The translations under genes and the position numbers were made by a program. Below the pieces are notes generated by a model. It worked only from the letters and a program-made list of their open reading frames with translations, was not told the origin of the DNA and searched no databases. A stretch of DNA of 64,000 bases from a virus. Shown here piece after piece: positions 16,061-23,988 of this stretch. Position 1 is the stretch's first letter, and each line of letters starts with the position of its first letter. Location of the stretch: the IMG/VR virus record IMGVR_UViG_3300023174_003073, positions 64,001-128,000 of that record, one strand, 5' to 3'.

Positions 16061-16323
16061 ATAATATGTTCATGTTTATCATGCCATCCATATTCAGTTG
16101 TAGTAACATTATCATAAAACCCATATATTGCTGTTCCCTTATATGCATTCTTTAACCAAATAATTTTTTTAGTAAGCATACAACGGTGTGGCAACCATGC
16201 AAAATCTTTTGTCCATGTTGCTGTTTTGTGAAACATCCAATCAGCTTCAGTTGATGATTTAGGTTTATATCCTAACTTCATTCTATAGTCATTGTAATTA
16301 TTACCGAACACTACGTACCCCAT
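16042..16323 (-). CDS. Small hypothetical protein
   Basis: FAWLPHRC..IWL..AY pattern. Confidence 0.6.
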   Translation of the reverse strand: MGYVVFGNNYNDYRMKLGYKPKSSTEADWMFHKTATWTKDFAWLPHRCMLTKKIIWLKNAYKGTAIYGFYDNVTTTEYGWHDKHEHIIWELQR

Positions 16324-17153
16324 TCGTTCTTAAAAAGAGGTACTTGAAGTCTGTCACTATAACGCCAACCTTTTTGCATTGCCAATTCTGCTACGTTTCT
16401 GTTGTTAAGATTATAAAGTTCAGGAACACCACCGCAAGGCATAAGATACACAGGACCTTTAAAGCCTTTCTTACGATATTCATTTACTGCTTGCTCCGCT
16501 TCTTCTGCATCTTCTTTTGTTGCTATTACAAATTTCAAGTAAGTATAACCTACATTGTAGTATTGTGTAATAACATCGGGCTTGATAGCATCTTCCCAAC
16601 TCTCACCGCTGATACTTAGTTTAGGACTTACGCTGAATGTAAGACAATGCAAGAAACGATGCTTCTTCCAATCAGCTAAGAAGTTAACTAACTCTGATTC
16701 TAACAATTGTGTACCATTAGTTTCAAAAGTCAGTTCTTGTAATCCACGCATATTATCATGTGATAACAATTCGGGATAACTACGTTGCCAACCTAGTAGC
16801 GGCTCACCACCCGTGATAACCAAATGCTCATCTTTCCAACGCTTCGCAGGAAGTAAATCGGTAATAGTATCAACAATAGTATTGGTGTCGAGAACAGGAC
16901 TAAGATGTTTGAAGCGTGGATCCCAACTCGCATAGCTATCGCATCCAGTAGATACAAGTGGTAATAGTTTATAAGATTTAAACTTCTCTCCGTCAACTGC
17001 AAAACGTTCAACACTTTTATCTCCTTTAGGCATTCCAAAGCCATCACATTTAAAATTACAACCGAATGTGCGTAAGAACACGGATGGCACACCTAAGTAA
17101 CGACCTTCGCCTTGAATACTATAAAATAATTCTGATATTTTTAATTTACTCAT
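16311..17153 (-). CDS. queE: 7-carboxy-7-deazaguanine synthase (radical SAM)
   Basis: ELFYSIQGEG, VFLR..GC, ITGGEP, ETNG, SVSPK, R.Q..L C-terminus; Cys motif Cx3Cx34C. Confidence 0.92.
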   Translation of the reverse strand: MSKLKISELFYSIQGEGRYLGVPSVFLRTFGCNFKCDGFGMPKGDKSVERFAVDGEKFKSYKLLPLVSTGCDSYASWDPRFKHLSPVLDTNTIVDTITDLLPAKRWKDEHLVITGGEPLLGWQRSYPELLSHDNMRGLQELTFETNGTQLLESELVNFLADWKKHRFLHCLTFSVSPKLSISGESWEDAIKPDVITQYYNVGYTYLKFVIATKEDAEEAEQAVNEYRKKGFKGPVYLMPCGGVPELYNLNNRNVAELAMQKGWRYSDRLQVPLFKNEWGT

Positions 17154-17347
17154 TCTTTAACTTTCTGTGGATAATAATATGTACAATCACTACGGCGTAT
17201 GTCCCAACTGCTACCTAGACCGCCTAGATGATGTAACGTCCATCTAGCACGGTCATGTGCTTCTGGTACAGCCATTGGCCAGGGAGTATTGTTGCGGCAC
17301 TGAATGTACTGCTTGAGATAAACATAACTTTGTTCACGTGCCCACAT
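17150..17347 (-). CDS. Small hypothetical protein between queD and queE
   Basis: ATGA overlap with queE; fills the gap. Confidence 0.45.
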   Translation of the reverse strand: MWAREQSYVYLKQYIQCRNNTPWPMAVPEAHDRARWTLHHLGGLGSSWDIRRSDCTYYYPQKVKE

Positions 17348-17355
17348 TATAGACC

Positions 17356-17919
17356 TTATGCAAATAAATCTTCATTCCATTCACGATGACCTTCACGGAA
17401 TGCCATGTTTGCTTGTGTCTCACGTACTTCAACACGATAGCACCATAGACGTTCTGCTTCACCGTTACCCCACATATCTGGAATATACACTCCATTGACA
17501 TATTTGTAAAGCATATCGGCTAAACTCTCACAACCAATTCTTGGGAGAATAGTTAACTTAGCTAATTTCTTTTCTTGCAACATTTTGAATGTTTCAAGTT
17601 CTGGGTCATCTTGTGCTACCAATAGTGTATGGTCAAATTGATCCTCAAGAATCTTCTTTAACTCTTTTAGTCCACCATAGTCAGCCGCCCAGTTACGAAC
17701 ATCTAAATCGTCAGTACCAAAATAAAATTTCATACTGAAACTATAACCATGAATCATATTGCAATGACTGTCTGCACGCCATTGACGATATGCACACGGG
17801 AATGCATCGTGATATTCCTTAGTACTTGTGAATTTATATTGTCTTGCTGAATTCCAACGATGTGTTGTAAAGTTTTCTTCTAAGTGACGAATTAAGTCAC
17901 CGGTTGATGAGTTTGCCAT
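17356..17919 (-). CDS. queD: 6-carboxy-tetrahydropterin synthase (QueD/PTPS T-fold)
   Basis: HCNMIHGY, D.GGLK, FDH.LL, GCESLA, VRET motifs; AGGAG SD. Confidence 0.88.
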   Translation of the reverse strand: MANSSTGDLIRHLEENFTTHRWNSARQYKFTSTKEYHDAFPCAYRQWRADSHCNMIHGYSFSMKFYFGTDDLDVRNWAADYGGLKELKKILEDQFDHTLLVAQDDPELETFKMLQEKKLAKLTILPRIGCESLADMLYKYVNGVYIPDMWGNGEAERLWCYRVEVRETQANMAFREGHREWNEDLFA

Positions 17920-17925
17920 TATTTT

Positions 17926-17990
17926 CTCCTATGTTAATTATAGCATAGGCAGCAGAATTTGTAAAGCGGGATGATGTCCAGAGACCGCTA
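17926..17990 (-). promoter_or_regulatory. queD leader: candidate preQ1-I-like aptamer, SD-sequestering hairpin and overlapping sigma70 promoter
   Basis: AGCGG-(15 nt ending CAUC)-CCGCU stem, UUACAAA tail, CCUAUG/CAUAGG hairpin covering AGG of the SD; same DNA reads TTTACA-17-TATAAT with TGn extended -10. Confidence 0.5.
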
Positions 17991-17993
17991 TCT

Positions 17994-18458
17994 TTATTTA
18001 CCTTTTTTCTGTTCCGCTTCCATAATTCTTTTTCGCAAGCTACTGCTACTAAAACTATGGTCACGCCCGTTATAGATAATCTTAATATTTCTTCTTTCAC
18101 AGATTTCTTTACCACTGAAATCTTTGTCTGCATATTCAATACCTAGTATACGCACATCAATAGGTAGTGTTAATAGAATGTCAGATAAATCCTTCTCTGT
18201 ATTATAGATAACAATCTCGTCAACGGTGCGTACTGCACTTAAACTGATTTGTCGTTCTACAATACTTTGAATTGGTTCATTCTTTTCTGGTCTATCCCAT
18301 TGAGCATTGTTTTGCAATCCAGCAATCAAATAATCACAGTGATTTTTAGCCTCACTGAGCATTGCAATATGACCTGCATGTAATAAGTCAAATTGACTAA
18401 AGGTAATACCAATAATCAATCCACGTTCTTTAAGTTCTTTAATCTTATTGAATATCAT
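17994..18458 (-). CDS. TagD-like cytidylyltransferase (polyol/sugar-phosphate activation)
   Basis: FDLLHAGH (HxGH), ER...L, VDE, R...FSSS.LR motifs. Confidence 0.88.
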   Translation of the reverse strand: MIFNKIKELKERGLIIGITFSQFDLLHAGHIAMLSEAKNHCDYLIAGLQNNAQWDRPEKNEPIQSIVERQISLSAVRTVDEIVIYNTEKDLSDILLTLPIDVRILGIEYADKDFSGKEICERRNIKIIYNGRDHSFSSSSLRKRIMEAEQKKGK

Positions 18459-18691
18459 TCTTCAACTCCGAAATGTTTTTTAATAGCAGTAGCATAAAGA
18501 TTACTTGAATGCTCTCCTGCTGATTTTATTTCGTAAGTTTTCCCTTCGTTGATGCAGGCTCGCACACATTCCTGAACAGTCAAATGAAATAATCGTTCAA
18601 TGGCTTCTTGTGTGTAAGTATCTAACTCTTCCCAACAACCATCTGCTATCAACCCCGATTGATATATCAAGTCATCTAATGCTTTGTTCAT
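18455..18691 (-). CDS. Small phage protein, paralog of 896-1156
   Basis: VQEC..AC and identical HFGVEE end. Confidence 0.7.
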   Translation of the reverse strand: MNKALDDLIYQSGLIADGCWEELDTYTQEAIERLFHLTVQECVRACINEGKTYEIKSAGEHSSNLYATAIKKHFGVEE

Positions 18692-19362
18692 TTCTGTCTC
18701 GCAATTTGATAGAACTCTGCACGTGCCGCTGGGTCAGTTTTGAAACCACCGCCTAAGCGTGTAGTCACTGTTGAACTACCAGTATCTTCTACACCACGAC
18801 TCTTAACACAATAGTGTTGTGCATCAATCATAACTGCAACATCTTCTGTGTCCAGAATAAATTGTAGTGTGTGAAAGATTTGTTCAGTTAATCGTTCTTG
18901 GATTTGTGGTCGCTTACTAAAGTATTCTACAATGCGATTAATTTTGCTTAAGCCAAGTACTCTGTCTTTGGGAACATATGCTACAGTAGCAAGCCCATCA
19001 ATAACAACAAAGTGATGTTCACAATTGCTTTGTACATTAACATTTCGTTCACATACCATTTCATTGTATTTCATTTTGTTGTCAACAGTAGTACATTTAG
19101 GGAATGCTTCGTAATCAAGTCCCCAAAAGATTTCATTGACATACATTCGGGCGACACGCTTTGGAGTATCACATAAGCTATCATCGTCTAGGTCTAATCC
19201 TAATACCTGCATGATATGTGCAAAGTCTTTTTCAATAAGGTCAATCTTATTCTTGCGGTCTAGTGCTGTTTGAAATGTTGGCGTTTCAACACCCATTTTG
19301 ACTAAGTGTTCGTGTACTTTTAATCCTAATTCAGGATCAGTTTTTGTCTTATTATAACTCAT
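18688..19362 (-). CDS. folE: GTP cyclohydrolase I
   Basis: DTPKRVA, SNCEHH, GLSKINR, RPQIQERLT, H.CV.SRGV. Confidence 0.97.
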   Translation of the reverse strand: MSYNKTKTDPELGLKVHEHLVKMGVETPTFQTALDRKNKIDLIEKDFAHIMQVLGLDLDDDSLCDTPKRVARMYVNEIFWGLDYEAFPKCTTVDNKMKYNEMVCERNVNVQSNCEHHFVVIDGLATVAYVPKDRVLGLSKINRIVEYFSKRPQIQERLTEQIFHTLQFILDTEDVAVMIDAQHYCVKSRGVEDTGSSTVTTRLGGGFKTDPAARAEFYQIARQK

Positions 19363-19397: not shown

Positions 19398-19428
19398 TTG
19401 TGCAACCTTTGTGTTGCACAAGTATTTA
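19398..19428 (-). promoter_or_regulatory. Late-type TAAATA promoter followed by a 9-bp hairpin in the folE leader
   Basis: GATAAATA then TTGTGCAAC-ACAAAG-GTTGCACAA. Confidence 0.6.
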
Positions 19429-19435
19429 TCACAGA

Positions 19436-22285: not shown

Positions 22286-22510
22286 TTAAAAAGTCCTGTT
22301 TAATGTTGCCCATGTGAGCCATTGATGAAATGTTTTATATACCATTTCTGCCTCATATTCATCTTGTGGTATCTTCACACCACGAATATAAAAACCATCG
22401 GGAGAAATCCTCAACATTTCACTATTAGTAGATGACCTAAATGTAATTGTATTTTTCATTTCCATATGTGTGATAGGTGCCGCTTGTGTTTCTTGTATCA
22501 TAAAAGTCAT
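22286..22510 (-). CDS. Small hypothetical protein
   Basis: EMLRI..DGFY.RG pattern. Confidence 0.6.
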   Translation of the reverse strand: MTFMIQETQAAPITHMEMKNTITFRSSTNSEMLRISPDGFYIRGVKIPQDEYEAEMVYKTFHQWLTWATLNRTF

Positions 22511-23988
22511 ACAAACTCAAACAATTCGTTAAACTTAGTCAATGAGTTAACAGTTTTCTTGCCACTCATACCTTGACTACCACTTTGCATTTGCTTCCAT
22601 AGATTACTATGTGCATCAATAACATCATGGCTAGCTTGTCTAGTCTTTTGTGCAAATACATCATCAATAACTTGTTTGAATGTTAGTCCAGACAAATCAT
22701 GTTTAAGCATTGCAGGTATAACACCTGTTTCATACTTACGATTAGCTTCTTGAACCGCAGTCATATGCTGATAGACATTATGACTTTGTAACAATGTATA
22801 ACTCAAAGTATCCCAACTCGTTTTAGTTTCTTTACCATGTTGACCAATGAAGCCTTGCCCTCGATAGCACAAGTCCTTCATTAGTAGTTTATCAGTTACT
22901 GGACTATCTGTAAAGACTTTATGGATGCCGTCAGCCAAAACTCCGTCTCTAAACTTACGGGTATCTGTAGCATAGTCTTTATTCTCAGCAGTTTTCTCCA
23001 TACTGTATGACCATTTCTTCTCATGTTCAATACTGTTATTGAAATATGCCAAACCTTTAGCCGCACTAAAGAATGGGCTAGCACAGTCAAATGTAATTTG
23101 TAGTTTTGGGTTGTGGTTTTTACGAATAGCTTTTTGAATATCAGTGAACAATACGGCATACTCAAGTATTGACACACCCAAACAGTGAATCAAGTCATGT
23201 TTACCTTCTTGTAGTAAACCATCATATATGATATCAACCATTCTACGCAACATCAAATGTACATCAATCTTTGTTTGTCCACCGAATGCCCAACCATTGA
23301 AATGATTATCTGGATAGATGTTTGGGTCGCAGTATTTCTTCATTTCATCATACCATTTATCACTATCAGTATGAGTACGACCTTGCAATACGTTTAGAAA
23401 CTTACACTTACCATTACGATTCTTAATAAAGTATTCGTTGTTGATATGGGTAGCACTGATTGCTTGTTCAATAGTACTGATACCGTGCAATGAAACACCG
23501 TTCTTGTCCTTCATGTCAAAAGTAGTTGTAGATTGTGAAGGGATATCTAAACACATACCATAGTCCATGTATGTGTCCATCCAGTTCAATACTGCTTTAC
23601 GCTTGACCATAGCACGGGGACAATTAGGATCCTTCCAATCAGCTGGCCATTGACCTTTAAGAATCTGAAATCCACCTGAATCACCTAAAATGAATGTACC
23701 TTCTTCACGTTTACGAATGATACTTTCATTATGGTCAACTTTGTTTGTATCTAAGTTAGCATGACCAGCAGAATACAAGCCCCATTTGTATGTGTATAGA
23801 CCTTCTTTACTGTTTAAGAAGTTTAGTTTCTCTACATCACCATTGAAACTTGCAGGTATACGTGCTAAGTCAAAGTAAGGTTCACCCTCACGTTGCTTAC
23901 CCAAGCCAGAAATATAGAAACTACTGACTGCGGGTAAGAACAATGCCCATTCAGGGTCATGTTGATTAGACAGGTTGATGTTGGACAT
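22507..23988 (-). CDS. dpdA: TGT-superfamily DNA-guanine transglycosylase (DpdA-like)
   Basis: DSGGFQ, LDIP, VLQG, GWAFGG, HCLG, TFD (nucleophile position) and HN motifs in TGT order; no CxCxxC zinc knuckle; folE/queD/queE context. Confidence 0.85.
   Translation of the reverse strand: MSNINLSNQHDPEWALFLPAVSSFYISGLGKQREGEPYFDLARIPASFNGDVEKLNFLNSKEGLYTYKWGLYSAGHANLDTNKVDHNESIIRKREEGTFILGDSGGFQILKGQWPADWKDPNCPRAMVKRKAVLNWMDTYMDYGMCLDIPSQSTTTFDMKDKNGVSLHGISTIEQAISATHINNEYFIKNRNGKCKFLNVLQGRTHTDSDKWYDEMKKYCDPNIYPDNHFNGWAFGGQTKIDVHLMLRRMVDIIYDGLLQEGKHDLIHCLGVSILEYAVLFTDIQKAIRKNHNPKLQITFDCASPFFSAAKGLAYFNNSIEHEKKWSYSMEKTAENKDYATDTRKFRDGVLADGIHKVFTDSPVTDKLLMKDLCYRGQGFIGQHGKETKTSWDTLSYTLLQSHNVYQHMTAVQEANRKYETGVIPAMLKHDLSGLTFKQVIDDVFAQKTRQASHDVIDAHSNLWKQMQSGSQGMSGKKTVNSLTKFNELFEFV

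Follow-up and report, generated by a model that had tools for sequence, protein, structure and literature searches.

Aptamers of class I prequeuosine-1 (preQ1) riboswitches (preQ1-I) are H-type pseudoknots in which an A-rich loop, L3, follows the first stem, P1. In these aptamers UC (type I) or AC (types II and III) stands before the P1 3' strand, U or UU follows the P1 5' strand in types I and III, and the short second helix, P2, contains or adjoins Shine-Dalgarno (SD) bases (PMC11625349). In this study, we analysed the leader of a queD-like gene in a window of 64,000 nucleotides (nt), which is part of the 171-kb IMG/VR record IMGVR_UViG_3300023174_003073 of an uncultured phage; coordinates are those of the window, and the leader is read on its minus strand. 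In phage T4, with which we also compare this leader, a pseudoknot near the 5' end of the gene 32 leader nucleates the cooperative binding of gp32, the ssDNA-binding protein, on an unstructured A/U-rich tract, and late promoters have the consensus TATAAATA. An earlier sequence-only reading of the window had proposed that the queD leader is a two-stem variant of preQ1-I exerting feedback control, a promoter-dependent translational switch, or both. Our results make it essentially certain that the leader is a conserved pseudoknotted cis-regulatory RNA.

The queD leader is a 74-nt spacer between a cytidylyltransferase-like open reading frame (ORF; stop codon 17996-17994) and the QueD-like ORF (ATG 17919-17917). 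We read the minus-strand sequence and found every leader element of the sequence-only reading in place; together with the helix P2, the features from 5' to 3' are as follows.

17995..18000, minus strand: TAAATA, a T4-type late-promoter-like motif that overlaps the stop codon of the upstream gene
17985..17989, minus strand: AGCGG, the P1 5' strand, which pairs with 17965-17969
17980..17984, minus strand: UCUCU, loop L1; it begins N-C-U (C and U invariant), and its remainder varies in length
17972..17979, minus strand: GGACAUCA, the P2 5' strand, which pairs with 17948-17954
17970..17971, minus strand: UC, loop L2; its C, which immediately precedes the P1 3' strand, never varies
17965..17969, minus strand: CCGCU, the P1 3' strand; its pairing with AGCGG is supported by covariation
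17955..17964, minus strand: UUACAAAUUC, loop L3, with the consensus N-U-A-N-A-(A/U)-A-(U/C)-U-C; the -35-like TTTACA (17960-17965) runs into it
17948..17954, minus strand: UGCUGCC, the P2 3' strand; its final CC are the first two bases of the SD-sequestering hairpin
17928..17949, minus strand: the class A hairpin, made of CCUAUG (17949-17944), the loop CUAUAAUUAA (17943-17934) and CAUAGG (17933-17928), which buries AGG of the SD
17926..17930, minus strand: AGGAG, the SD sequence

AGCGG and CCGCU enclose a loop of 15 nt, and UUACAAAUUCUGCUG lies between CCGCU (17969-17965) and CCUAUG (17949-17944). Within the P2 5' strand GGACAUCA, GG and CA are paired, an A is bulged, a U is the partner in an invariant mismatch, and the final CA is again paired. 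The hairpin loop of 10 nt carries TGcTATAAT (-10 at 17942-17937), and UGCUG of the P2 3' strand is also able to pair with UGGCA at the start codon.

The minimum free energy of this single leader (-13.4, z = -0.33) was at chance level, since 65 of 200 shuffled sequences folded equally well, and the reality of the element therefore rests on comparison across relatives. IMG/VR held at least 596 relatives of QueD, and the best 80 of these (79-99% identity) were used as the set of related loci. A second set comprised 80 loci found with a DNA pattern that left the P1 5' strand, L1 and the distal part of P2 free. The leader element was present as one copy before queD at 80/80 related loci and at 79/80 pattern-found loci; the pseudoknot leader thus recurs in about 160 related uncultured phage contigs, which belong to T4-related freshwater phages. 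The two sets contained 119 distinct aptamer sequences, 117 of which were parsed for loop positions. The comparison showed that the loop sequence GGACAUCA pairs with the tail UGCUGCC, so that P1 and P2 form an H-type pseudoknot. Of the earlier two-stem model, the P1 stem and the SD-burying hairpin are real and conserved, but P2, the best-covarying part of the structure, had been missed.

P1 occurred as AGCGG/CCGCU, ACCGG/CCGGU, AGAGG/CCUCU, AGUGG/CCACU, UGCGG/CCGCA and AUCGG/CCGAU. For P2 we found the four-base variants GGCA/UGCC, GGCG/CGCC, GGUG/CACC, GGCU/AGCC and GGGC/GUCC, and the five-base variants GGCAU/AUGCC, GACAU/AUGUC, GACUU/AAGUC, GGCUU/AAGCC and GACGC/GUGUC. The step at the P2 junction, which encloses an invariant U.C mismatch, was UCA/UGC in 113/117 aptamers and UCG/CGC in 4/117. 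In a MAFFT alignment blind to structure (16 distinct rows), 98.4% of cells were paired compared with 29-51% when the strands were slid, and 5/12 pairs showed compensatory changes. The corresponding values were 97.1% against 30-50% with 8/12 compensatory pairs in the model-aligned full set (58 distinct rows), and 96.0% against 30-52% with 7/12 in the second set (72 distinct rows). Compensatory changes affected 5/7 pairs of P2 in the 58-row set and 4/7 in the second set. In the 58- and 72-row sets, G.U pairs occurred on the minus (gene) strand only, which fits an RNA of the sense strand. An alternative helix between AGCGG and CUGCU of the tail was rejected, as it showed zero compensatory changes and was broken whenever P1 varied. 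The earlier view of a conserved, structured, riboswitch-like leader tied to a 7-deazaguanine gene is borne out by the recurrence of the leader, with compensatory changes, before queD.

The unpaired positions, the mismatched U and C among them, were near-fixed over the 119 distinct sequences. L1 started with CCU in 46, UCU in 45 and ACU in 26 of the 117 parsed aptamers, its second C and third U being invariant. The C of L2 before the P1 3' strand was found in 117/117 and was preceded by U (85), C (15), A (7), UU (7) or CU (3). L3 was strongly conserved, with the consensus NUANAAAYUC and 4-6 A per 10 nt; the A-rich L3 of preQ1-I aptamers docks into the minor groove of P1. P1 has 5 bp, P2 spans 7-10 positions, and the whole aptamer measures 40-46 nt. 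As an isolated duplex, P2 of the window is weak (-1.3 kcal/mol), as expected for a helix that needs a ligand or tertiary support.

Downstream of the near-constant aptamer, the region from P2 to the start codon had four architectures, classes A-D, and in all four the P2 3' strand shares 1-5 nt with the helix that hides the SD or the start codon.

Class A (the window): CCUAUG-loop-CAUAGG covers AGG of the SD; the shared bases are CC, with which the P2 3' strand ends
Class B: a helix of UGUCAUC with either GAUGGCA or GAUGACA; the P2 3' strand contributes its four distal bases
Class C: an 8-bp helix of UGCCAUUG and CAAUGGCA, as predicted by RNAalifold; here too the P2 3' strand contributes its four distal bases
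Class D: a helix of UGUCU with AGACA, immediately behind GGAG; the shared bases are the four distal ones of the P2 3' strand (UGUC)

The class A hairpin was near-invariant in 74 leaders, with CCUAUA/UAUAGG variants, in agreement with the SD-burying role first read from the window. Its stability of -5.8 kcal/mol changed to +0.4 once the shared CC/GG pairs were removed. RNAalifold predicted the class B helix GUCAUC/GAUGGC, one pair of which goes through U-G, U-A and C-G. An extended class B helix, CUUGC/GCAAG, was rejected on manual inspection, because two subclasses carry crossed, non-complementary variants. The anti-ribosome-binding-site (anti-RBS) duplex reached -9.2 (class B) and -10.4 (class C) kcal/mol within its own class, compared with -4.5 to -7.8 across classes; the anti-RBS strands thus fit the RBS of their own class best, which amounts to compensation between classes. 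The platform between the aptamer and the start codon has been rebuilt at least four times.

We then blocked the P2 3' strand in silico and predicted how far the SD and AUG are unpaired when this strand is free or blocked. On blocking, the predicted value for the SD changed from 0.23 to 0.77 in class A, from 0.35 to 0.66 in class B, from 0.85 to 0.86 in class C and from 0.40 to 0.71 in class D. That for AUG changed from 0.62 to 0.20, from 0.01 to 0.32, from 0.00 to 0.38 and from 0.55 to 0.35, respectively. Because P2 and the occluding helix share a strand, they would be mutually exclusive, and a locked pseudoknot would leave the RBS open and translation ON. The lock would most likely be a small ligand at the P1/P2 junction; on locking, the RBS would be released and QueD translated. 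Feedback repression of queD, as first proposed, runs against this architecture: the 3' strand of the aptamer is the anti-RBS strand, so the folded aptamer should turn translation on.

The leader also carries promoter-like signals. TTTACA-17-TGcTATAAT (17965-17937, minus strand) was the best sigma70-type match in 10 kb, with 11/12 positions plus TG. The hairpin loop keeps TGnTAnnnT (T-A-n-A-n-T after TGn) in 77/82 class A leaders, and the -35-like TACAAA in L3 was present in 75/82 class A leaders compared with 3/57 of the other classes, which gives the embedded sigma70-like promoter of the sequence-only reading comparative support in class A. Classes B, C and D have no sigma70-like promoter, yet they retain the aptamer and the competing helix. 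For the late-promoter motif, ATAAATA occurred 15 times on the gene (minus) strand of the whole window and 2 times on the other strand; 10/15 of the gene-strand copies lay in the 6% of the DNA that is non-coding, and 13 lay within 120 nt upstream of a start codon. The ATAAATA sites are candidate T4-type late promoters, judged by motif and position. TAA[A/G]TA stood 4-12 nt upstream of P1 in 51/67 distinct contexts, several different upstream genes included, and the late-promoter motif noticed earlier before P1 is thereby upheld; late transcripts would start at or just before P1. These motif counts come from phylogenetically related sequences and hence do not represent independent events. The late-type promoter would give the regulated transcript, and the embedded sigma70-type promoter of class A would give a short early transcript that lacks the aptamer and the anti-SD arm and bypasses the switch. 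Contigs from RNA libraries of four lake studies covered the leader of relatives and bridged it to both flanking genes, which is weak evidence: such contigs carry no information on strand, level or 5' ends, and may derive from carried-over DNA.

To assess the distribution of the element, we searched with a covariance model. The results showed exactly one copy per queD locus (80 loci and the window), and no further copies in 1.28 Mb of fetched phage DNA, save for one chance match of 21 bits. Five large phage records, three of them 95-100% complete, each held one copy. In 157/159 real instances, queD was the first gene downstream, and in the other 2 it was the second: a 276-aa ORF resembling S-adenosylmethionine (SAM) methyltransferases (2118-2948) lies between the pseudoknot and queD in locus L060, and a 113-aa cupin-like ORF does so in L165, the pseudoknot remaining at the head of the operon in both. 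A blastn search of 50,697 GenBank phage records found no homologue, just short chance matches to the promoter and SD part. Four cultured phages have the most similar QueD proteins (about 43-54% identity: ACP17, X1, R5C and Me-ZS1), and their queD loci lacked the motif even with filters off. The covariance model gave only 5.8 bits to a match of 38 nt in a human-faecal fragment (H41), which is hence not a copy. Among 185,579 genomes of prokaryotic (bacterial and archaeal) species, the single match (CAZXGO010000106.1) was an 8-kb contig of a Chitinophagales metagenome-assembled genome, where a class B leader is followed by queD at the contig end; this is either mis-binned phage DNA or a hint at the host. 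A full-text search of the literature found no description of the motif.

The element resembles preQ1-I in being an H-type pseudoknot with a 5-bp P1 and an A-rich loop after P1, and at sequence level in the invariant C, mostly preceded by U, 5' of the P1 3' strand. It likewise lies in the 5' leader of a gene of the 7-deazaguanine/queuosine pathway, where it would control translation through pairing with the RBS. Unlike preQ1-I, the phage element has N-C-U rather than U or UU in L1, a P2 whose 7-10 positions include an invariant U.C mismatch (3-4 bp in preQ1-I), an L2 of 2-3 nt rather than 4-6, an L3 of 10 nt with a conserved UC end, and an aptamer of 40-46 nt rather than about 34. With its P2 3' strand serving as anti-RBS strand, the predicted logic is ON, whereas in preQ1-I that strand is part of the SD (OFF), and the element was found only in phages without QueC. 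An Rfam cmscan at E<=10 of window positions 17000-19000, of the 86-nt slice 17915-18000 and of a 101-nt slice of relative L006 (2905-3005) returned only noise (IRES_Tobamo, microRNAs, Alpha_RBS and preQ1-II flanks). The Infernal search with the Rfam preQ1 model at relaxed thresholds, which had been suggested as a check, gave no match to the leader. Over the whole 171-kb record, RF00522 (preQ1-I) produced seven noise matches of 9-13 bits, none of them at the leader (gathering threshold 39 bits). RF01054 (preQ1-II) reached 15.9 bits against a gathering threshold of 47, in a partial alignment over UAUGCUAUA...AGGAGAAAAU AUG that covers unstructured flanks only and skips 69 model positions, and RF02680 (preQ1-III) gave no match; these two families have HLout pseudoknots. 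The candidate preQ1-I variant of the earlier reading therefore finds no support as a member of that class, since RF00522 did not match any of the three slices at E<=10 and L1, P2, size and logic differ. SAM-II/SAM-V, guanidine-III and fluoride riboswitches are H-type pseudoknots with RBS competition, in which the ligand stabilises the pseudoknot helix; as in these, the helix shares a strand with the platform and the loops are highly conserved, but in sequence, loop lengths and gene link the element is unrelated to them, and no Rfam family matched it at the thresholds used. We file it as a new RNA family of preQ1-I-like architecture and not as a member of preQ1-I.

Given this architecture, we lean, if only slightly, towards a metabolite-sensing riboswitch with ON logic, ligand binding and the direction of switching being deduced from the shared strand and the conserved loops. 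A conserved aptamer joined to a variable platform by a shared strand is a generic trait of riboswitches, and it is present here. A guanine-like compound of the route from GTP to 7-deazaguanine is suggested by the invariant C beside P1, a feature shared with preQ1-I; candidates with a guanine-like face would be dihydroneopterin triphosphate, 6-carboxytetrahydropterin (CPH4), 7-carboxy-7-deazaguanine (CDG), 7-deazaguanine, preQ0 and guanine. We tentatively propose a fuller version, which we consider somewhat less likely than not: a phage-only riboswitch class that senses an intermediate of this route (for example dihydroneopterin triphosphate, CDG or 7-deazaguanine), turns ON translation of the first committed enzyme of DNA hypermodification, and has a late promoter on one side and an early one on the other, regulation then being limited to a part of the transcripts. 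Several observations weigh against the riboswitch reading. A single phage clade supplied every sequence, and many substitutions are therefore shared by descent and do not count as independent. The element is linked to queD operons only, a single gene family, whereas many riboswitch classes govern several genes of a pathway. In class A, distal P2 GG/CC and hairpin CC/GG are invariant, and the partner of CC cannot be read from covariation. The predicted accessibility of the class A AUG falls when P2 is blocked, owing to possible pairing of UAUGCUAU with the start region, which leaves the ON direction uncertain in this class. Class A start regions are AGCAUG-N or N-AUGGCA, both complementary to hairpin UAUGCUAU and to UGC of the P2 3' strand; in the window, AUGGCA (17919-17914) is complementary to hairpin UGCUAU (17940-17945) and to UGC(U)G of the P2 3' strand. 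Pairing of the start region at <= -5 kcal/mol was found for 82% of 57 distinct class A starts compared with 25% of 565 other gene starts, and the sole compensatory case was an exchange of C-G for A-U in L005 and L015, where the loop has GAUAU together with the start AUGUCA. The platform of class A may thus adopt three or more states, with a third conformer that hides the start codon.

Rather unlikely, in our judgement, is a protein operator in which QueD or another phage protein binds the pseudoknot, represses or activates its own synthesis as in T4 gene 32, and so chooses between P2 and the RBS-occluding helix. The T4-type ATAAATA motifs are confirmed, the element is tied to one gene family, and its conserved single-stranded loops could equally be protein contacts; the gene 32 pseudoknot likewise stands at the 5' end of its leader, and by analogy both would be 5'-proximal pseudoknots that control translation of the downstream gene. 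Unlike that of gene 32, however, the pseudoknot strand described here itself competes with the RBS helix, and the gene under control encodes a metabolic enzyme. QueD has no evident RNA-binding domain, and the element at the operon head in L060 and L165, with a gene inserted before queD, suits operon control more than an operator for QueD at the RBS of its own gene. The element is also like small-ligand pseudoknot aptamers (PMC11625349) in its compactness, in its invariant nucleotides at the junction and in the C that precedes the P1 3' strand. We consider it unlikely that the element is structural and ligand-free, protecting the 5' end of late transcripts from RNase or setting translation by kinetics or promoter choice. 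In transcripts from the late-promoter-like motif P1 would form the extreme 5' end, the internal promoter-like site of class A could gate translation through promoter choice alone (an idea of the sequence-only reading too), and single-sequence thermodynamics are unremarkable; but an invariant U.C mismatch and ten unpaired nucleotides that hardly vary are more than pure protection or kinetics would need, and the aptamer with its competing helix is retained in classes B, C and D, where the sigma70-like promoter is missing. A true but highly diverged preQ1-I member, sensing preQ1 or preQ0 and repressing queD, is distinctly improbable. The H-type topology, the 5-bp P1, the invariant C (mostly after U), the A-rich loop and the link to a que gene speak for it, UC or AC before the P1 3' strand and an A-rich L3 being hallmarks of the class (PMC11625349). 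Against these stand the failure of RF00522 to match at E<=10, the N-C-U of L1 instead of UU, a P2 of 7-10 instead of 3-4, the anti-RBS 3' strand with its ON platform logic, and the absence of QueC from three 95-100% complete relatives. Finally, it is extremely improbable that the leader holds only DNA-level signals, overlapping promoters whose RNA folds are incidental: -35-like, extended -10-like and late-promoter-like motifs do overlap the element, but conservation of promoters cannot explain the compensatory changes in P1 and P2, and the classes other than A keep the aptamer without sigma70-like hexamers.

If the pseudoknot binds a metabolite, as in the riboswitch reading that we prefer, it would represent a new riboswitch class and, to our knowledge, the first riboswitch dedicated to phage DNA hypermodification. 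In that case it would join the smallest known aptamer fold as an ON-type relative, with the preQ1-I scaffold rebuilt for another ligand and the opposite logic, and a ready sensor for a compound of the 7-deazaguanine pathway. The identity of the ligand would also help to reveal the DNA base of abundant uncultured lake phages that lack QueC. Even without a ligand, the leaders are of use as a natural set in which one aptamer carries any of four interchangeable platforms, and as a case of promoters nested within a regulatory RNA.

The genes around the leader are as follows.

17356..17919, minus strand: queD-like gene, 187 aa (PF01242, 3.6e-16; phrog_2389, 6.9e-38)
18688-19362: neighbouring gene for FolE
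16311-17153: neighbouring gene for a QueE-like radical-SAM protein

Further neighbours encode glycosyltransferases and an epimerase. The QueD-like protein scored 35.7 bits, far below the NCBIfam QueD cut-off of 89, so its exact reaction may differ from that of canonical QueD. Its first 20-28 residues vary widely among the relatives L001-L080, which are otherwise 80-99% identical. QueC was absent from three relatives that are 95-100% complete, and phages of this kind are therefore probably unlikely to make preQ0 or preQ1 themselves. A search of five related records with PF01702 (tRNA-guanine transglycosylase) found no DpdA. A 493-aa ORF in the window (22507-23988, minus strand) had no PHROG match; if it is a transglycosylase, it is a very divergent one. 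In the folE leader (window 19398-19429, minus strand), 67 nt upstream of where folE starts (19362), there is a late-promoter-like GATAAATAC with a hairpin of 9 bp, TTGTGCAAC/GTTGCACAA, after it; this may be a second structured leader in the cluster.

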